A DNA stretch of 64,000 bases. Origin: an uncultured Pelagibacteraceae bacterium. Lineage in GTDB: Bacteria; Pseudomonadota; Alphaproteobacteria; Pelagibacterales; Pelagibacteraceae. The DNA is taken from the NCBI GenBank assembly GCA_902570915.1, contig CACGAB010000001.1, positions 60,048-124,047 on the forward strand. The letters are read 5' to 3'. A program made the position numbers and the translations under genes. Below, piece after piece: positions 33,508 through 43,210 of the stretch (the first letter of the stretch is position 1; each line of letters opens with the position of its first letter). The notes under the pieces were generated by a model, which did no database searches, was not told the origin of the DNA, and saw only the letters and a list, made by a program, of their open reading frames with translations.

Positions 33508-35232
33508 TTATCTATTAGATAACCAGATTGTTTGACAAGGATCTAGTTTAATTCTTTTATCAAGTGTAAAAAATATTTTACTCCCTAATAAGTCTTTATA
33601 TTTTAAAAACTTTTTATTTAATTTGAAATATTGCAATTCTGAAGAGAGATTTGTTATGCAAATTATAGTTTGTTTTTTATCAATACTTTCTCTTTTAAAA
33701 GAAAATATTTTTGGTCCAAGATTAATATTTTCTCTATTTGCGTTTGGATGAAAAGCTTTCTGCTTTTTTTTGACACTTAATAGATTGGAAATCTTTTTAT
33801 AAAAATAACTTTCTTTAGAATCTTTATTATTAAGTTTGTTTGAAATATTTTTTAAATTCCATTTATATCTATTAACATCTCGATTATTACCGGTAATTAC
33901 AAATTTTGCTTCATCATTGGACGTACCAAACATGGAGTTGAAATAAATCGCAGGCACTCCTTCGAATGCAATCATAATTGAATGAGCAGAAATATATCTT
34001 TCAAATGCAAACTTACCATTATCATAATTTGTTTTTTTTAGAGCATCAAATACTGTTATATTTGCCTCATAAACCTTTTTTGATTTATTTTGAATTCTTC
34101 TATAAGAAAACTTTGATCCATTTTTTTTTAACCTGTTAAGAAAATCTTTTAAAACTTTGTTACTTAATAATCCTTCTGTGGGTCTCATTCCAATTCCATC
34201 ATGAGATGCAATGAAATTTAAATAACAGTTTCCATTTTTACTTTTTGGAAGTTTTTTACTCCAACTATAAAGATACGAATTGTTTTCAAATAAAAAAGCA
34301 TGGATTAATAAAGGTGGTAAGGAAAAATTATATATCCAGTTAGCTTCATCATTTTTTCCAAAGTAACTTAAATTTTCTTTTTCAGGCAAGTTTGTTTCTG
34401 TAACTATTAAGGTTTGGGTATTAAGTAAGCCAGAAATCATTCTTAGGAGTTTTATGATTTCATGTGTTTTACTTAAGTTAATACATTTTGTTCCACTTTC
34501 TTTCCAAAGATAAGCAATTGCATCTAACCTAAAAATAGTTACTCCATGATTAATTAGATTAATCATGATCTTTATAAAGCGTAATAACACTGCTGGGTTT
34601 TTAAAATTTAAATCTAATTGGTCAGGACTGAAGGTTCGCCAAAGATAATCAGTTTTGTTAAAAATATTTATTTTTTTTAAAAGTTTATGATCTCTTGGTC
34701 TTACAACTTTTGAGGTATTAAATTTAGAGTCTACAGTTAAAAAATAATCTTTACCGGGTCTTTTTGCTTTTAAAAAATTTTTAAACCACAAACCTCTTGC
34801 AGATGAATGATTAATGACAATATCTGCCATGATATCACTTTTTTTTGAAAAATTTTTTATATCCGACCAATTGCCAAGCTTAGCATCTATTTTATAATGA
34901 TCTTTTACTGCAAAGCCACTATCACTGCTTGATGGATAAAATGGTAGAAAGTGAACAGTGTTAAAATTTTTACTTAATCTTTTTTGAAAGAAGTTTTTGA
35001 ATACCTTAATTGAATGTTTTTGATTTTGGGCAAAAATGCTATCACCATAGCATATAAGCATTGAGGTTTTTTCGGTTATATTCTTTATCTTTTTTTTATT
35101 TTTTTGGTTGAATTGGTTTAAAAGTTGTACAACTTTGCTAGTATAAAAATTAACATCTTCTTTGTTGCAGTGTAATTGATAAATATTATTTAGCTTAGAG
35201 TAGATCTTTTTTTGATTTGTTTTGGATAACAT
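33508..35232 (-). CDS. GH13_18 phosphorylase, probably glucosylglycerate phosphorylase
   Basis: HFLPFYP-SSDSGF, RLDAIAYLWK nucleophile, VTETN acid/base motif and YEAN loop typical of the glucosylglycerate phosphorylase branch, SHDGIG; context. Confidence 0.8.
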   Translation of the reverse strand: MLSKTNQKKIYSKLNNIYQLHCNKEDVNFYTSKVVQLLNQFNQKNKKKIKNITEKTSMLICYGDSIFAQNQKHSIKVFKNFFQKRLSKNFNTVHFLPFYPSSSDSGFAVKDHYKIDAKLGNWSDIKNFSKKSDIMADIVINHSSARGLWFKNFLKAKRPGKDYFLTVDSKFNTSKVVRPRDHKLLKKINIFNKTDYLWRTFSPDQLDLNFKNPAVLLRFIKIMINLINHGVTIFRLDAIAYLWKESGTKCINLSKTHEIIKLLRMISGLLNTQTLIVTETNLPEKENLSYFGKNDEANWIYNFSLPPLLIHAFLFENNSYLYSWSKKLPKSKNGNCYLNFIASHDGIGMRPTEGLLSNKVLKDFLNRLKKNGSKFSYRRIQNKSKKVYEANITVFDALKKTNYDNGKFAFERYISAHSIMIAFEGVPAIYFNSMFGTSNDEAKFVITGNNRDVNRYKWNLKNISNKLNNKDSKESYFYKKISNLLSVKKKQKAFHPNANRENINLGPKIFSFKRESIDKKQTIICITNLSSELQYFKLNKKFLKYKDLLGSKIFFTLDKRIKLDPCQTIWLSNR

Positions 35233-36452
35233 TAACTGTATTTTTTGTTATCCTCATTAACAACTCTTTCTAATCTTCCTAAAAAATCAGGTATTGCACT
35301 TTTAACTCTACTCCATGTAGGTATAAAAGGTGTATCCATTGGATTAAGAATAAATGCTTCTCCAGCCTTCATTATATTTACAGCAAATAATTCGACAGCT
35401 TTTTCTTCTGTATGTGAGTCAAATTTTAATCCGTTCATGTATGCATCACTTCGATAAATATCAATTAAATCTAAAGCAGATCTATAATAAGTTGCTTTTA
35501 GAGATCTAAATTTTTCTCTACTAAATGTATTACCTTGAGTAGCTAATTTTTTAATAAATGTTTTTATTATATCAATGGACATTCTAGATAAACCTTTGGT
35601 TTCATCGTCGCTAGATAAAATTTGATGTTTGTGATCATAAGTATCAGCTAAATCGACCTGACAAATATTTTGCGGTGAAAAACTTCTTTGCATTTCAGAT
35701 AAAATACCAACTTCAATACCCCAATCAGAAGATATCCTTAATTCTGGTAAAACATTCCGTCTAAAAGAGAATTCACCAGCCAAAGGATACTTAAAAGACT
35801 TCATAAACTCTAAATAGCTACTAGCACCAATAGTCTTCTCGAGAGCAGTTAGCAAAGGAAAAACAAGTAATCTTGCAACTCGGCCGTTCATTTTTCCGTT
35901 AGCAACTCTTGGATAATATCCTTTACAAAATTCAAAATTAAAAAGAGGGTTTACAACTGGGTAAAAAAGTTTAGCTAACATTCTTCTATCATAGGTTTTT
36001 ATATCACAATCATGCAAGGCAACAGAACGTGCAGTATCTCTTGCAATAGACATACCAATGCAATACCAAACATTTCTTCCTTTACCGAGTTCACTTGGTG
36101 CAAGATCTTTTTTCTTTAATTCTTTATCAAGTTTTTTTAGTCCAGGTCCATCGTTCCACAAAAGAGAAAAGGGTGCTTTTAGTTTTTTGAAAAACTTCCA
36201 AGCTTTTTTTGCTTGATTTTCGTTGGCTTTATCAAGACCAACTATAATATGATCTAAATATTTTGTTTTACTAATTTCCTCTACAATATTTGGTAAAGCA
36301 TTACCCTCTAGCTCTGAATAAAGACAGGGTAAAATTAATTCCATCTTTCTTTTTTTAGAAAATTTTAATAAATCTTTTTCAATTTCTGTTGTGGATCTCG
36401 TCCCAAAATCATGCAAAGTCGAGATTACCCCATTTTGAGAAAATTCACTCAT
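35232..36452 (-). CDS. gpgS: Glucosyl-3-phosphoglycerate synthase (marine/cyanobacterial type)
   Basis: F-x-QNG-x-I-x-TLH N-terminus, GKGRNVW, HDCDI, GRVARL, YPLAGEF, DWGIEVG, YDHKHQ. Confidence 0.82.
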   Translation of the reverse strand: MSEFSQNGVISTLHDFGTRSTTEIEKDLLKFSKKRKMELILPCLYSELEGNALPNIVEEISKTKYLDHIIVGLDKANENQAKKAWKFFKKLKAPFSLLWNDGPGLKKLDKELKKKDLAPSELGKGRNVWYCIGMSIARDTARSVALHDCDIKTYDRRMLAKLFYPVVNPLFNFEFCKGYYPRVANGKMNGRVARLLVFPLLTALEKTIGASSYLEFMKSFKYPLAGEFSFRRNVLPELRISSDWGIEVGILSEMQRSFSPQNICQVDLADTYDHKHQILSSDDETKGLSRMSIDIIKTFIKKLATQGNTFSREKFRSLKATYYRSALDLIDIYRSDAYMNGLKFDSHTEEKAVELFAVNIMKAGEAFILNPMDTPFIPTWSRVKSAIPDFLGRLERVVNEDNKKYS

Positions 36453-36460
36453 ATTTTAGT

Positions 36461-37267
36461 TTAGACATTATGATTTAATTTAGCTAGAGCCATTTTAATC
36501 ACATCAGCCCAACCTTCCGGAGATGGTTTATTTGAAAATTCAAGATTATTAATATTAATTTGATCAAGTTTAAACTGATCGTTAAAAACTAAGCAAGGAA
36601 TATCGCTATTTTTTAGCATATCTAGATCATTATAGTTATCGCCAACTGCAATTGTTTTTATCTTATCTTCGGTTTTTTTTAAAATTTTTATGACTTTATT
36701 CATGGATTTTACTTTATTAACCCTATCACATAAGTTTGAGACACGTCCACCATCTTGTAAAGTTAAAGAATTATCGTTTAAAATTTTTAGTAGTTTATTT
36801 TTTTCTGTTTTTTTTCCAATAAATAAAAGTGGCAAAGTATAATTTCTACTTAAAACATTTTTAAGCTTGTCATCCTTTTGCCCAAATATTTCCTCCTGTT
36901 TTTTTTTGTTCAATTTGGAAATTAAAAGACATTTATTTTTTATTTTTTCAGGAACTTTTAAATTAAAGATTTTCAGTAATTCCTCTTTTTCTCTACTAAG
37001 AATTATTTTGTTTGGAAAATTTTTATTTATTAAATTTAAACCATGAATTGATGAACCATTTTCTGAAATGTAAGGTAGCTCAACACCTAATTCCTCATTA
37101 AATTTTTCAATCTCTTTTTCAGTTTTGCTAGAATTTGGAATAATGATAATCCCACTATTTACAAGGCTTCTTATGTAAAGTTTGATGGTGTCGAATTTAA
37201 AAGTATCTCTATGTAAAAGTGAACCATCTAAGTCGGTAAAAATCAAAATTGTAAATTTTTTTTTCAT
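36461..37267 (-). CDS. gpgP: Glucosyl/mannosyl-3-phosphoglycerate phosphatase (HAD-IIB)
   Basis: FTDLDGSLL, NSSKT, ISENGS, GGR, VGDNYNDLDML; first gene of the gpgP-gpgS-phosphorylase operon. Confidence 0.8.
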   Translation of the reverse strand: MKKKFTILIFTDLDGSLLHRDTFKFDTIKLYIRSLVNSGIIIIPNSSKTEKEIEKFNEELGVELPYISENGSSIHGLNLINKNFPNKIILSREKEELLKIFNLKVPEKIKNKCLLISKLNKKKQEEIFGQKDDKLKNVLSRNYTLPLLFIGKKTEKNKLLKILNDNSLTLQDGGRVSNLCDRVNKVKSMNKVIKILKKTEDKIKTIAVGDNYNDLDMLKNSDIPCLVFNDQFKLDQININNLEFSNKPSPEGWADVIKMALAKLNHNV

Positions 37268-37461
37268 TACTCAAATTACAATAAATATTTTTATAAACAC
37301 TTTAAAAAATTAAAAAATAGTATGTCTTTTAGAAATTTGACAGAAAAAATAATATTATTAACCATATTACAATTTCTACTTGAGGATGAATTTTACATTT
37401 AAATTATATAATGAGACATAGTGCGGTTTGACTAATTTGTTAAATATTTTTATTTAGGCTT

Positions 37462-39201
37462 ATGATTTCTAAATCAATTATTAATTTTTCTAAATATTTT
37501 GTTTTAAGTTATAAAAACTCTCCACTTGATCCAAATTTGATAGAAGATTTTGTAAATAATGATTATTTTAAAAACTTATTGATAAATTTAACTGAAATAG
37601 ATCCTTATGATTTTAAAATATCTGATGAATTTTTTAGATTAAACGCCATTTCTTTATTACCTCATTTAAGAATACTAAAAACTTCCTTAAATTTGACGAC
37701 TGAAAGGTTTCTGTTAGAGCTTTCATATCTTGTGCAACCTTTTAATAAGCATTTATCAAGTGAATTAAAAATTCTATCTTCAAAAATTAACAATTCTGAG
37801 TTTGGAAATGCTAAATTAATCTCAAATTTACTAAACAGCTCAAAAAGTTTATTTTATAAGAAACTAATTTTGGATTACGAGAAAAAAAATCCTCTAGCTT
37901 TATATCCAACCTCAAGTTACAGAAATTCATGTGGTCATGTTGTAAGTTCAAACGACTATCAACAGATAGAAGCAACTATGAATCTAAACACTTTTACGTC
38001 AATTAAAGTAGAGGAAAATACATTAGATATAAATAATTCTCTCTTGAGAGATCAATACAAATCGTTTGGAAGATGTGTTTGTTTATTGGATCAAAATATT
38101 GAAAATAATTATGGACTAGAAATTGAAAATTATTTCAATCATCATTCAATTGTCTTAGAAAAACTGGTTTATAGGGCTATGGAGGTTGATAAGCATATAA
38201 AAAATGTTGAAAAGATAGTTGAGGATTTTAGAAAACTTGGCGTAAACAGAAATGAACCAATCCTAATAATTGGAGGAGGAGTTATAGGGGATATTGGAGC
38301 TTTTGCTGCATCTATTTATCATCGAAGCACTCCATATATAATGCTGTCGACATCAGTTGTAAGTGCAATAGATAGTGGACCAAGTCCAAGATCATGTTGT
38401 GATGCTGGTGGATTTAAAAATCTCTTAGGTTCTTTTCACGCCCCAGTTCTTAATATATCTGATAGGTCATTCTTTAAAAGTTTAAGAACTTCTTGGGTTA
38501 GACACGGGATTGCCGAAATTCATAAGATGGCTGTAATTAGAGATAAAGAATTATTTTATTTACTTGAAGATACAGGACTTGATTTAATGAAAACACATTT
38601 TGGTACAATTAATTGTAATTCTCAAGATGAAATAGTGTCTAAATCAAAAAAAATTATCGGATTATCTTTAAAGAGTTATGTTGAGAGTGAATATGATAAT
38701 TTACACGAAGTTCACAGTATTAGAGATCATGCATTTGGCCACGGATTAAGCGCAAACTTTGAACTTAAAGCAGGATTATTACATGGTCACGCTATAAGTG
38801 TTGAAATGACCTTAAGTTCTTTTATGTCTTACAAAAGAGGCTGGTTAAGTGAAAAAGATTTGCATAGAATTTTAAAGTTATTTAGCGAATACGAATTAAG
38901 TTTATGGCATGACATATTGTTAGATGAGAAATGTATGAATGAAGGTTTTGATAAAATTCTTCAAAAAAGAGGTGGCAACTTGGCTATTCCGGTTCCAATT
39001 GCTATCGGTAGGTGTAAATATGTTAATGATCTAACAAAATCTGAATTAAAAGAAATTATACGAGAATATAAAATAATAGTTTCAAAATACCCCAGAAAAG
39101 GATTGGGTGTTGAACCTCTTTGTTTAGATGCAGGGCTTGAAGATCCAGTTACTGTTTTTAAAGCAGATGAAAATATTGCAAAAGAAGCTAATTTAAATTA
39201 A
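37462..39201 (+). CDS. Sedoheptulose-7-phosphate cyclase, long-form DDGS/MysA-like (DHQS superfamily) with about 150-aa N-terminal extension
   Basis: IGGGVIGD NAD motif, IDSGPSPRSCCD, FKNLLG, HGIAEIHKMA, YDNLHE, AFGHG, LLHGHAI (HGHA rather than the HGEA of DHQS/EEVS). Confidence 0.8.
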   Translation: MISKSIINFSKYFVLSYKNSPLDPNLIEDFVNNDYFKNLLINLTEIDPYDFKISDEFFRLNAISLLPHLRILKTSLNLTTERFLLELSYLVQPFNKHLSSELKILSSKINNSEFGNAKLISNLLNSSKSLFYKKLILDYEKKNPLALYPTSSYRNSCGHVVSSNDYQQIEATMNLNTFTSIKVEENTLDINNSLLRDQYKSFGRCVCLLDQNIENNYGLEIENYFNHHSIVLEKLVYRAMEVDKHIKNVEKIVEDFRKLGVNRNEPILIIGGGVIGDIGAFAASIYHRSTPYIMLSTSVVSAIDSGPSPRSCCDAGGFKNLLGSFHAPVLNISDRSFFKSLRTSWVRHGIAEIHKMAVIRDKELFYLLEDTGLDLMKTHFGTINCNSQDEIVSKSKKIIGLSLKSYVESEYDNLHEVHSIRDHAFGHGLSANFELKAGLLHGHAISVEMTLSSFMSYKRGWLSEKDLHRILKLFSEYELSLWHDILLDEKCMNEGFDKILQKRGGNLAIPVPIAIGRCKYVNDLTKSELKEIIREYKIIVSKYPRKGLGVEPLCLDAGLEDPVTVFKADENIAKEANLN

Positions 39202-39205
39202 TAAA

Positions 39206-40186
39206 ATGTACCAATTTGTAATTCCAATTCACCATGTGAATTGGAGTACAAGATCAGTTCTAGAGGGAATTTCTCAAAAATATAAACCCAAACAAATTTA
39301 TGTCGTAACATCAGATCATGAGATAAAAATTTTTAAAGATAAATCTAATTCTTGGGATATTGAAAATTTAACATTGCTGGATGAGGATAATTTTTTTTTA
39401 AATAAATATGGTTTAACAAAAACTGATATCGTTTCTCAAATTACTCAAAATAAACCCAATTACTCCCCTGGATGGTTGTACCAACAGATTATTAAATTAG
39501 GAGCTAATGATGTTATAGATGAATTAGAAGATGTTTTTTTAGTATGGGACTCTGATTTACTGCCAGTTAGATCTTGGCCAATTCTTGATGAAAAAAAGGA
39601 AAAGTTTGCTTTGTTACAAGATAAATCATATGGAAACCAAGATGTTTTAAATTCGTGGAAAAATTTAATAATCAATGTATTAGAGATCAACCCTGTCGAA
39701 GATATTAGAGGAACATTTACATCACATCATATGATTTTTAAAACAAAGTATTTAAAAAGTCTCAAATCAAAATTTAAAGATCATTTCAAATCTGATCAAA
39801 ATTGGATTGAATTAATTATAAAAGCTGCAAATATATATGGTTCTTTTGGTGAATATTGGACTTATGCCAGTTGGGTAAATCATATAAATAAAGATGATCT
39901 AAATTATCATCCTTATGAAAAATATGGTTTAACCACAGAAAGATTTTATGATGATGGCAATGGTTTATTTTCAAGAAAATACAAGAAATTTAGTAATTTT
40001 GGGGAACAAAAAGACTTTTATCCGTCCTATTCGTCTATAATAAATTTTATAGATAAAAATTATCAGTTTCCTCCTTCCTCTTTATCATTTGAAACGAATA
40101 TTAGACACACAAAGAAAAAAGATGAAAATATCCACCTTGAGGAAAAAAGATCTATTTGGAGAGAAAAAGTTTATGATAGAGATTAA
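39206..40186 (+). CDS. GT-A-fold glycosyltransferase-like protein (DUF6492-like)
   Basis: FVIP N-terminal strand, GWLYQQIIKLG, LVWDSD (DxD), FTSHHMIF, FGEYWTY; 4 nt after the cyclase stop. Confidence 0.65.
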   Translation: MYQFVIPIHHVNWSTRSVLEGISQKYKPKQIYVVTSDHEIKIFKDKSNSWDIENLTLLDEDNFFLNKYGLTKTDIVSQITQNKPNYSPGWLYQQIIKLGANDVIDELEDVFLVWDSDLLPVRSWPILDEKKEKFALLQDKSYGNQDVLNSWKNLIINVLEINPVEDIRGTFTSHHMIFKTKYLKSLKSKFKDHFKSDQNWIELIIKAANIYGSFGEYWTYASWVNHINKDDLNYHPYEKYGLTTERFYDDGNGLFSRKYKKFSNFGEQKDFYPSYSSIINFIDKNYQFPPSSLSFETNIRHTKKKDENIHLEEKRSIWREKVYDRD

Positions 40187-40255
40187 AAAATTTAATACTG
40201 CTCATGATGGAAGATCAATATTATGAAGGAAGAAAATTCAATTGAAAATTAAATT

Positions 40256-40645
40256 ATGATTGAACAATTTAGTATTTATTTAATAGCGATGATACTAGGG
40301 ATAATGTTGTTTTTCTCGTTTGTGATTGCTCCAGTAGTATTTACTACTTTAGATGAAGATAATGCTCGAAAGTTTATTAGAAGAATATTTCCTTTTTATT
40401 ATAATGTGAATTTAACGATTAGTTTCGTTATCCTACTAATCTTTTTATTTTTAGGTAAATTAGGCGTTGATTTTTATCTAATTTTATTGATCACAATCTT
40501 ATTCACTACATCAAACTATTTATTAATGCCATTAATTAATAAATATAGAGATGAAAAACAGGATAAAAAATTCAAATATTCACACTTTATCTCAGTAGTA
40601 ATTAATTTTGTTCAAATGATTTGTTTGGTATTTCTTTTAATTTAA
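40256..40645 (+). CDS. DUF4149-family membrane protein
   Basis: FFSFVIAPVVF..L....A..FIRRIFP, P-x-IN-x-x-RD, F...H..SV. Confidence 0.82.
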   Translation: MIEQFSIYLIAMILGIMLFFSFVIAPVVFTTLDEDNARKFIRRIFPFYYNVNLTISFVILLIFLFLGKLGVDFYLILLITILFTTSNYLLMPLINKYRDEKQDKKFKYSHFISVVINFVQMICLVFLLI

Positions 40646-40774
40646 AAGTTTTTTTTCTTTTTTACCTTTAACTTCGTTTTTTTGATCACAGTATTTTTTG
40701 AAAACATAAGCCGTTGATACCCCACCAATTAGTATTAATTTTAATATCTTTAATTTAATAAGTGTTTTTATCAT
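40637..40774 (-). CDS. Small 45-aa hypothetical protein (not in the ORF track)
   Basis: Manual translation MIKTLIKLKILKLILIGGVSTAYVFKKYCDQKNEVKGKKEKKLLN*; its ATG overlaps the TGA of the upstream ORF (ATGA). Confidence 0.5.
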   Translation of the reverse strand: MIKTLIKLKILKLILIGGVSTAYVFKKYCDQKNEVKGKKEKKLLN

Positions 40775-40980
40775 GATTTAATATCAAACCTTTCTAATAA
40801 AAATTGGATTATTAAATTATAGAAAAATACAAAACAAAAAATATAAAATAGAAAAATTACTTCTTTAGAATTAAAGAGGTATCCAGTTGCGGTTAAAAGC
40901 ACGAAAAATAGGCTAATTGATAAAGCAAGCTTTGCCTGTGATTTCTTTTTTAAGTGAGATTTAACAATATTGCTTTTCAT
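40771..40980 (-). CDS. Small two-TM hypothetical membrane protein
   Basis: 69-aa ORF with two hydrophobic segments, fills an otherwise empty gap. Confidence 0.55.
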   Translation of the reverse strand: MKSNIVKSHLKKKSQAKLALSISLFFVLLTATGYLFNSKEVIFLFYIFCFVFFYNLIIQFLLERFDIKS

Positions 40981-41110
40981 TAAATAATAATAACTATTAA
41001 AGATATTTATTCATCATGAATTTTGTCCTACCTAGACATTTGAATTGTAATGTTTTAACATTTTTAACACTCATTTTTTAAATTTATTAAGGTATTGATG
41101 ATTAATTGTT

Positions 41111-43210
41111 GTGAAAAATATTTATAAAATTCATTACATCATATCTTTTTTAGCTTTATTTTTTTCTAAAGCTATAGCGGAGCCAACCTTTGTGCAAAGC
41201 AAATCAATCGACACAGCCACTTATTATGGACTTACATTTAATAATAATGGAACAAAAATGTATACTTTAAGAAGTGGAGGAACAACGGATGCAGTTATTG
41301 AACATATATTAACTACCGCATATGACATTTCAACGGCAACCGTAAATAATACTAAAGTAGTACATGTAAGTGGAGGTAATAACTCTCATGTACCAACACA
41401 AGTAGTGTTCAATAACGATGGAACAAAAATGTTTATTGTTAACCATGCTGGTAGAAAGACAGTAGATTACTGGTCACTAAGTACTGCATTTGATGTTTCA
41501 ACTGCTACATTTGATGGCGCATATAGTCTAGTTGGTAAAGAACAAAGAGCTAATTCAATTGCATTTAATAATGATGGTACCAGAATGTTTATTGCTGGTG
41601 TAGGAAATGACTCACAAGTACGTATTCATGAATTTTCACTAGATACAGCATTTGATCTTAGCTCAGGAGTTACTCAACTTAATACTGAAGACCTAATTTC
41701 TTTTCACAATCACATAGATGGAGTTACTTTTAATTACGATGGTACTAAAATGTATACCATTAATGGTACAGAAGATTTGATGTCTCAGTTTAAATTAACC
41801 ACACCTTATGATGTTTCTACTTTATCTCTTGAAGGCACCTATGATGTAAGTTCTCTTACTAATAATTCAAGAGAAGTTGTGTTTAGTAATGATGGAAGTA
41901 AAATGTTTATCCTTGATGATCTCGATAATAAAATTCATGAATTCAACCTAAGTTGTAATTGGAGCATAATCGATGGTGCATGTGATGATCCAATAACTAC
42001 TTCTGATGAGGGCAAAGATACTTTAAGCTCAATCGAGTCTCAAACTGCAACTGCTAAACAAATTGCTATTCAAGCAAGTACTCCAGTTCTTAACCGTATG
42101 TATTGGTTAAGAAGACATAGAAATAATGATCAATTAAGTAACCAAAATATTAGATTAAACTTTTCTAATTCAATGGTGGCATCGCTTTCTAACATTATTC
42201 CCATATCAAATAAAACAAATGAAGTTCTAGATAGATTATCAGATGATTGGTCATTTTGGAGTGAGGGTAGCGTAAGTATTGGTAGAACTGGAGATACATC
42301 TACTTCATCATCTAAAAAAATTAATACCAAAGGTATTACACTTGGCATGGATAAAAAGATAAGCAAAAATAGATTATATGGTTATGCTCTTAGATTTGGT
42401 AATGATGATGTTGATGTAGGCACATCTGGGACTAATTTAGATACTGAGTCTTTTAGTTTGTCTGTTTATGGAACTTTTCCCCATGATGATGAAAAATTTA
42501 CTGAAGGTATTCTTGGAGTGAGCACATTAAAGACTGATCATATTAGGAAAGGGGGAGGTAGTACTAGAACAGGAGAGAGAGATGGTGCACAAATATTTGG
42601 TTCACTTAATTACTTAACAACATATAAAAAAGAGAATTTTAATATTACTCCAAATTTAAGAATTGATTTAAGCTATACAGAATTGTCCAAATATAGAGAA
42701 AAAGGTCCTGCAGCCTTAGTTTACAAAGCTCAAACAATTGAAACTGGAATGATATCAGCTGGTTTTACCATAAGTGATATTTTAGATTATAATTCTTTCA
42801 CTTTTAAACCAAATGGTGGATTAGAGCTTGGATTAGATTTTAGTCCTTCTTCAGATGCTACTTATCGTTATCTATCGGAAACTACAGAATATACAAAATC
42901 AATTGATCAAGATTCAAAAAATTTAAGAGCAAATATTGGATTTGATTTAGTAACCGATAATGGTTTTTCCATAATGACTATTTATGAGAGAAATCAAAGT
43001 GACAATGCTCATAGCGATACTTTATATTTAGGATTTAGTTTTATACCAACAGACGATATTGAATATGCTATGACTTTAGATAATGACAAAGCATCTTTAA
43101 GTTATAAGAGAGATTTGAATGGTTTTGATATCAGAATGAGTTCGAATTATAGCTTGATGAGTCAAATACCTGTCTATGGTGCAACCCTAGAAATTGTAAA
43201 TACATTTTAG
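41111..43210 (+). CDS. Autotransporter-like outer-membrane protein with repeat (beta-propeller-like) passenger domain
   Basis: Signal peptide (..KAIAE), five F-N/S-N/Y-D/N-G-T/S-K/R-M-F/Y repeats about 50 aa apart, barrel region from WSFWSEGSVSIG/GITLGMD, terminal Phe. Confidence 0.8.
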   Translation: MKNIYKIHYIISFLALFFSKAIAEPTFVQSKSIDTATYYGLTFNNNGTKMYTLRSGGTTDAVIEHILTTAYDISTATVNNTKVVHVSGGNNSHVPTQVVFNNDGTKMFIVNHAGRKTVDYWSLSTAFDVSTATFDGAYSLVGKEQRANSIAFNNDGTRMFIAGVGNDSQVRIHEFSLDTAFDLSSGVTQLNTEDLISFHNHIDGVTFNYDGTKMYTINGTEDLMSQFKLTTPYDVSTLSLEGTYDVSSLTNNSREVVFSNDGSKMFILDDLDNKIHEFNLSCNWSIIDGACDDPITTSDEGKDTLSSIESQTATAKQIAIQASTPVLNRMYWLRRHRNNDQLSNQNIRLNFSNSMVASLSNIIPISNKTNEVLDRLSDDWSFWSEGSVSIGRTGDTSTSSSKKINTKGITLGMDKKISKNRLYGYALRFGNDDVDVGTSGTNLDTESFSLSVYGTFPHDDEKFTEGILGVSTLKTDHIRKGGGSTRTGERDGAQIFGSLNYLTTYKKENFNITPNLRIDLSYTELSKYREKGPAALVYKAQTIETGMISAGFTISDILDYNSFTFKPNGGLELGLDFSPSSDATYRYLSETTEYTKSIDQDSKNLRANIGFDLVTDNGFSIMTIYERNQSDNAHSDTLYLGFSFIPTDDIEYAMTLDNDKASLSYKRDLNGFDIRMSSNYSLMSQIPVYGATLEIVNTF

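Follow-up and report, generated by a model that had tools for sequence, protein, structure and literature searches.

A MysA-lineage cyclase gene paired with a DUF6492 gene in SAR11 bacteria: a candidate nitrogen-free branch of the sunscreen pathway

The window analysed here is a stretch of 64,000 nucleotides from an uncultured Pelagibacteraceae (SAR11) bacterium, whose genome assembly (G000) comprises 948,516 bases with 29.8% GC and is 72% complete. On the forward strand lies a gene for a 579-aa sugar-phosphate cyclase (37462..39201), followed after 4 nt by a gene for a 326-aa DUF6492 protein (39206..40186) and, after a further 69 nt, by a gene for a 129-aa DUF4149 membrane protein (40256..40645). 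The Pfam assignments are PF01761 and PF24621 for the cyclase, PF20102 for the DUF6492 protein and PF13664 for the DUF4149 protein. A preliminary description of this DNA, made by a model from the letters and their open reading frames, had taken the three genes for one unit producing a glycosylated cyclitol. The three open reading frames, their spacings and the NAD-binding, metal-ligand and DxD motifs that it listed were confirmed on the sequence.

Linkage and conservation of the two genes

Among 80 loci of GTDB genomes from SAR11, cyanobacteria and Bacteroidota, the DUF6492 gene stood next after the cyclase gene on the same strand in 76. In the other four, the contig ended after the start of the DUF6492 gene, the gene lay elsewhere in the genome, the cyclase was a second copy beside mysBCD, or the genome possessed mysBCD without DUF6492. 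On metagenome contigs DUF6492 followed the cyclase in 12 of 16 cases, the remaining four contigs stopping at or within the cyclase. The gap between the two genes was -4 to 5 nt in all 34 SAR11 loci, and when 301 Pelagibacteraceae genomes were searched, the same 11 carried both genes and 290 carried neither. Clearly, the adjacency is far beyond chance, and the cyclase-DUF6492 module is real and conserved. The linkage proposed for survey in the preliminary description thus recurs across three phyla; the pathway it had envisaged for SAR11 has its gene pair there, but the pair is not specific to SAR11.

Both genes are under purifying selection. For the cyclase, the ratio of nonsynonymous to synonymous substitution rates was 0.044-0.111 in 18/18 pairwise comparisons; for DUF6492 it was 0.067-0.120 in 16/17, the remaining pair being near-identical. 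GC content is 0.29 for the cyclase, 0.27 for DUF6492 and 0.29 for the window. Contigs were mapped from four marine metatranscriptome runs, out of 19 RNA runs with small word shares; they covered both genes, and two span the junction, but such contigs can show neither transcription nor strand. An Rfam scan of 36900-41300 gave 0 matches, and promoter-like sites numbered 26 against 28.5 expected by chance. In a check for phage carriage, no relative was confirmed among 247 pattern matches from viral contigs.

In genome G693 the DUF6492 gene has moved off the cyclase to a site beside mysBCD (L165), which suggests that it is tied to the pathway rather than to the locus. Only a stop-ridden remnant of DUF6492 was found in G675 and none in G761, both of which have mysC elsewhere. 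Altogether, DUF6492 was absent or decayed in 3/14 genomes bearing mysC and in 0/70 in which mysC was not found, counts that include related genomes as if independent and come mostly from incomplete assemblies. The DUF4149 gene occurred in 17/34 SAR11 loci and in 30/121 SAR11 genomes, mostly without the cyclase. It was rejected as a third member of the module on account of this independent occurrence, and its inclusion in the unit as first described was not borne out.

Lineage of the cyclase and its mys context

The cyclase has both domains of dehydroquinate synthase (DHQS), a GGG-type NAD motif (GGGVIGD, residues 271-277) and Glu/His/His metal ligands at E352 (in HGIAE), H427 (FGH) and H441 (LHGHA), and so belongs to the DHQS-like superfamily of sugar-phosphate cyclases. 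H441 aligned with H287 of Anabaena MysA, and H443 stands in place of the Glu in the HGE of AroB. Ranked by sequence, its PDB matches were Anabaena MysA (5TPR, 3e-70), the synthase of 2-epi-5-epi-valiolone (EEVS) ValA (7e-45) and DHQS (2e-26); fold searches with a cyclase model of modest quality (pLDDT 65.6) returned the same order. Against the AroB model TIGR01357 it scored 146 bits (cut-off 305), its Ala431 occupies the position of the DHQS His base (the fourth residue beyond the first His ligand), and a true aroB, scoring 360 bits, adjoins aroK on contig C4 of the genome. AroB identity was rejected on these grounds. The preliminary description had placed the enzyme with MysA rather than AroB and had called for a search for a separate aroB; both the placement and the expected gene were upheld.

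According to the available text of PMC10666671, three residues distinguish MysA from EEVS, and two of them were shown to do so by mutagenesis: Glu254, Ala268 and Thr347 in MysA, against Leu267, Asp281 and His360 (ValA numbering) in EEVS. By alignment mapping, the cyclase is MysA-type at two of these positions (E410 and A424) and has K502 at the third, so that none of the EEVS residues is present. The Lys in place of Thr347 is not decisive, since it also occurs in 8/8 mysB-linked enzymes of the sister clade described below. Compared with Ava_3858 MysA of Anabaena variabilis (PDB 5TPR), the cyclase shares the fold, the NAD motif, the three metal ligands and the equivalents of Glu254 and Ala268. 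It differs in about 165 additional N-terminal residues, the Lys for Thr347, a GPSPRSCCD loop, HGLSA in place of HTWSP, and the lack of a mysB or mysC neighbour; in SAR11 no orthologue of these was found. EEVS routes (gadusol via EEVS and MT-Ox; streptol glucoside) likewise yield nitrogen-free C7 cyclitols from sedoheptulose 7-phosphate, and streptol glucoside is itself a cyclitol glycoside, but their Leu267 and Asp281 are missing here and their partner enzymes are different.

The N-terminal extension (about residues 1-165; 37462..37956, +) is specific to the long-form clade, and the model shows confident helices at residues 1-142. It had no Pfam or PDB sequence match, and the whole-model fold search barely tests it; its resemblance to a helix-turn-helix was not confirmed. 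In an even sample of 301 genomes of the cyanobacterial phylum, 44 had a MysA-like gene, and the 30 loci read comprised 6 long forms, 8 members of a mid-length clade and 16 short forms adjoining mysB or mysC. The mid-length enzymes have the GPSPR loop and the Lys in common with the long form and are followed by mysB in 8/8 loci. In trees of the catalytic domain built without EEVS rows, the long and mid-length clades were joined with a support of 1.0 (FastTree, 62 rows) and 100 SH-aLRT (IQ-TREE quick search, 38 rows), and in both the long forms clustered with mysB-linked enzymes. This grouping, together with the shared loop and Lys, indicates that the peculiarities of the long form are compatible with MysA function. 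The trees and a motif survey bear out the long-form MysA identity first suggested. NLHE, which had been read as a mark of MysA, is a secondary change rather than a mark of descent: among the long-form rows it stands in the protein studied here, all others having NLYE and the sister clade NMFE. The mid-length enzymes (L133-L140; about 450 aa) carry GPSPRTCTN and KRG and lie in normal mysAB(C) operons. Long forms were also seen in three Bacteroidota loci (L044, L068, L073), two with a divergent mysBCD, one of them with and one without DUF6492.

The SAR11 enzymes formed one clade inside the long forms (support 99, IQ-TREE quick search), to which shared AT-richness could contribute. Two types were distinguished. 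Type B retains HTWSP, has the same DUF6492 partner, and mysC was not found in its genomes; type A, the group of the protein studied here, has HGLSA. All 34 type-A rows, which extend down to 63% identity, have T428G, W429L and P431A, next to the ligand H427, plus I354H and G448E. HTWSP was present in all 81 other MysA-lineage rows (two of them duplicates), and the type-A changes were absent from their consensus. The deviation near the active site noted at the outset is therefore genuine, and it is confined to this SAR11 subclade. In genus g10, all four sampled genomes (G010, G025, G034, G043) had a type-B pair at a different site.

MysC was found in 0/34 SAR11 pair carriers, with a positive control, and in 0/5 carriers that included G241 (97% complete) and G215 (99% complete); true MysB was likewise found in 0/34. 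Neither gene was detected in the cluster or genome of G000 (72%), G215 or G241. MysB and MysC, said at first to be lacking at this locus, were also not found in the rest of this genome or in 34 further pair-bearing SAR11 genomes. None of the three outcomes named beforehand as contrary to a new pathway (a cyclase that is the sole aroB, canonical mysBC elsewhere, an adjacency never repeated) was encountered. Transketolase and transaldolase were present in 5/5 carriers tested.

Outside SAR11, 11 of 45 cyanobacterial and Bacteroidota long-form genomes had a MysC match, or 10 after one distant ATP-grasp was dropped. All 13 mysBC(D) clusters that were read lacked a short mysA, and in three the long form was divergent beside mysB. 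In 14 genomes with a long form and true mysC, the long form was the only enzyme resembling a synthase of demethyl-4-deoxygadusol (DDG) in 13, the other genome having a second MysA-like gene. Long forms appear to supply these split mys clusters. Halothece sp. PCC 7418 has a similar layout, its MysA (PCC7418_1590, Ap3858) being encoded apart from mysB-D and yielding mycosporine-2-glycine in S. elongatus (PMC12981126), as the long-form genomes here have theirs apart. Halothece has mysBCD and makes mycosporine-2-glycine; in SAR11 carriers no mysBCD was found and the type-A motifs are altered. The mys cluster of Hyella patelloides is described without mysA in the accessible part of PMC8472315, and a long form with DUF6492 was found in this organism (L045). 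For the published puzzle of mys clusters without mysA (available text of PMC10666671 and PMC8472315), a direct answer is offered here, in that the genome encodes a long-form MysA at another site.

Several matches were set aside. A 'mysD' beside the pair in L055 (22% identity) looks like an ordinary D-Ala-D-Ala ligase, and the mysC count excludes MysC-like matches in L121-L123 (26-30%), which belong to different clusters; those of L121 and L122 are ATP-grasp genes with neighbours that by eye resemble FabH and NAD-epimerases. The mysBC(D) clusters without mysA (L114-L120, L165, L166, L168, L169) were accompanied by sodium:solute, GPH-type or EamA transporters, some also by a pair of HAD and TauD-family genes.

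The DUF6492 partner and the proposed pathway

The DUF6492 protein was modelled with a GT-A fold (pLDDT 92.8), and its DxD motif (D115/D117) was invariant in 40/40 close and 54/54 wider DUF6492 rows, features expected of a GT-A nucleotide-sugar transferase. The top four folds were CpsY (Z 14.3, root-mean-square deviation 4.1, 228 residues aligned) and GNPTAB (Z 13.2-13.5), both Stealth hexose-1-phosphate transferases (8J2N and 7S6N); LARGE1 reached 10.6 and other transferases less. Like these enzymes the protein has a strand that carries His, and its acidic metal motif resembles theirs, but identity is 8-11% at a deviation of about 4 Å, and the known Stealth acceptors are glycans and glycoproteins. 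By sequence (regions CR1-CR4) Stealth membership was not supported: 40 DUF6492 proteins had no match to the Stealth Pfam families at E up to 5, two DUF6492 profiles matched no Stealth chain in the PDB, and hhalign against two Stealth proteins gave 30% probability. A Stealth_CR2 search of 46 pair-bearing genomes found nothing, though the same search gave no match in any control. The GNPTAB pocket includes His956 and Arg986 (available text of PMC8913297); compared by spacing only, DUF6492 has conserved H174/H175 and no evident Arg at the sixth position ahead of E216. DUF6492 is thus predicted from its model to be a nucleotide-sugar transferase, with glycosyl and glycosyl-phosphate transfer about equally probable. 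The earlier label 'glycosyltransferase' stands as to fold and DxD motif; as its closest folds transfer sugar 1-phosphates, it names one of two chemistries. In P0273, P0277, P0279, P0292 and P0343 a distant DUF6492 domain forms a fusion with a sulfotransferase, MFS or GT4-type domain, and the protein at L126:1075-2004 (-) weakly matched Stealth_CR2 (4.5e-4) and also the DUF6492 profile at QQ, DxD and FSE, a possible bridge between the families.

The following mechanism is proposed. In a first step, the cyclase would carry out the NAD+- and metal-dependent cyclisation of sedoheptulose 7-phosphate, as in MysA, to DDG or a close variant; for type A, DDG or a near isomer is quite probable as the product. 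In a second step, DUF6492 would draw on a nucleotide sugar, with Mn/Mg at D115/D117, to modify that product, which we consider likely. That the two steps form a module in which a sugar or sugar-phosphate cap takes the place of the MysB methyl group is, in our judgement, an even call. The favoured site of capping would be the C2 enol hydroxyl, which MysB methylates, because capping there should stabilise the oxidation-prone enediol; the alternative is C7-OH, the position used by MysG1 on mycosporine-like amino acids (MAAs). The end product would be a stable nitrogen-free cyclitol conjugate rather than a mycosporine. Very small cells gain little from self-shading by sunscreens, and for this reason the compound would act inside the cell as an antioxidant or a compatible solute instead of a sunscreen.

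It is likely that a minority of SAR11, equipped with the first gene of the sunscreen pathway and DUF6492, make a nitrogen-free, sugar-capped compound on the sunscreen core. The SAR11 data suggest that the pair can function in the absence of mysBCD as well. A wider proposal is offered tentatively, at somewhat less than even confidence: long-form MysA and DUF6492 would constitute an undescribed nitrogen-free branch, which in the carriers examined outnumbers the mycosporine branch and has a Stealth-fold transferase in place of the methyltransferase; in a SAR11 subclade the cyclase would have been retuned further, giving a cyclitol glycoside or cyclitol sugar-phosphodiester.

Several observations weigh against the proposed two-step module. 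In the even cyanobacterial sample, 4/5 long-form genomes had mysC and DUF6492 was adjacent in only 2/5; in those with mysC the long form probably feeds ordinary mycosporines, and the stand-alone picture was partly shaped by choosing loci near the SAR11 query. That the Halothece enzyme PCC7418_1590 is likewise a long form is a presumption. Members of the wider DUF6492 family turn up in viruses, in glycan-type contexts and in fusions that have no relation to cyclitols. No cyclase-DUF6492 fusion was seen among 7,992 long candidates, a weak test. Most genomes are incomplete single-cell or metagenome assemblies. A housekeeping O-methyltransferase of PF01596, the Pfam family of MysB, was present in 5/5 carriers tested and 24/34 SAR11 carriers. 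Finally, the lineage-wide HTWSP is missing from type A, whose stem in the tree is long (0.85), so that the product of type A may differ.

This last point leads to the reading that type A has changed its substrate or product, making a valiolone isomer or other cyclitol without the gadusol chromophore as an osmolyte beside glucosylglycerate. The five substitutions fixed in type A, its long stem and its lasting adjacency to a glucosylglycerate-type operon would fit. E410 and A424, however, are still MysA-type at positions examined by mutagenesis (PMC10666671, as available), the partner is unchanged in kind, and type B, which keeps HTWSP, has that partner too and no detected mysC; a changed product appears doubtful.

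DUF6492 might instead act like a Stealth enzyme in surface decoration, incorporating the cyclitol together with a sugar-phosphate into capsule, lipopolysaccharide or exopolysaccharide for evasion of phages or grazers. The four best folds and the lower scores (at most 10.6) of all glycosyltransferases agree with this, as do TylF, GT17 and other glycan-type genes downstream in the window, the patchy occurrence of the pair in a variable island, and the many viral members of DUF6492 clusters. But no gene for polymer synthesis, export or activation travels with the pair across the 80 loci, the genes often found nearby serve osmolytes and sugar uptake, and the neighbour in G693 is a small-molecule mys cluster. 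With the Stealth profile results given above, we regard surface decoration as unlikely.

Alternatively, the cyclase would make DDG, the PF01596 O-methyltransferase would convert it to 4-deoxygadusol, and DUF6492 would act afterwards or be merely co-regulated. The retention of DUF6492 in 11/14 genomes bearing mysBC fits a step downstream of methylation, as the frequency of the methyltransferase in carriers does. This enzyme, however, lacks the N-terminal 100 residues of MysB, scores 1e-19 to 1e-29 where true MysB scores 1e-63 to 1e-78, is encoded between gatB and a core gene, and was also present in 5/5 SAR11 genomes without the cyclase. Its identity as a MysB was not supported, and late action of DUF6492 is quite improbable. 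A second shikimate-pathway AroB, suggested by the DHQS fold and a Lys where DHQS has a basic residue, is hardly credible given the TIGR01357 score, Ala431, the true aroB beside aroK and the restriction of the gene to 11/301 genomes of the family.

Neither MysA nor split mys clusters nor the glycosylation of MAAs is new, and the MAA glycosyltransferase characterised in the available text of PMC11378024 belongs to GT4. According to the same text, MysG1 (GT4) and MysJ place a sugar on a gadusol-derived core, MysG1 glucosylating C7; they belong to other families, lie in complete mys clusters and use amino-acid-bearing MAAs, whereas DUF6492 has the GT-A fold and mostly occurs without mysC. In the literature searched, which omits most subscription papers, there was no mention of DUF6492, no description of the cyclase-DUF6492 pair and, judged by listing, no report of mys genes in Pelagibacter. 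The available parts of PMC12904256, PMC7826186, PMC6521297, PMC10614408 and bioRxiv 10.1101/2022.09.27.509721 have no bearing on the pair. If the proposed capping of the sunscreen core is correct, the ocean's most abundant bacterial group would make a cyclitol glycoside or cyclitol sugar-phosphodiester by a specialised small-molecule pathway, a new nitrogen-free metabolite would be expected in surface seawater, and DUF6492 would gain its first function.

Surroundings of the gene pair

Divergent from the cyclase, and starting 194 nt upstream of it at 37267, is a HAD phosphatase gene (36461-37267, -), followed by a GpgS-like gene (35232-36452, -) and a GH13 phosphorylase-like gene (33508-35232, -), all named from profile matches. 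These had been called a glucosylglycerate operon. The divergent arrangement was confirmed; the scores fell below every curated cut-off (GpgS 357 vs 700, MPGP 152 vs 165, sucrose-phosphorylase 171 vs 334 bits), and the identity rests on homology and gene order. Type A lay beside the glucosylglycerate-type phosphatase in 20/34 SAR11 loci and beside the GpgS-like gene or whole operon in 12/34, and the deep type-A members L189 and L201 also adjoin genes of this type. The operon was rejected as an obligate partner, since it is missing from type B, from cyanobacteria and from many type-A loci. In nine SAR11 loci (L009-L013, L015, L016, L018, L026) a sugar ABC importer, co-directional upstream of the cyclase, replaced the GpgS-like and phosphorylase genes.

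In two single-cell assemblies (L027, L036) the cyclase was broken into two open reading frames, by error or decay. Two small minus-strand open reading frames (45 and 69 aa) at 40637-40980 converge on the DUF4149 gene, with no Rfam match. Contigs from RNA libraries were deep over this interval in 3/4 runs, with loose poly(A) ends at 40856 (three runs) and 40823 (two runs). A 699-aa protein with an autotransporter beta-domain (41111-43210) followed the module in 16/34 SAR11 loci.

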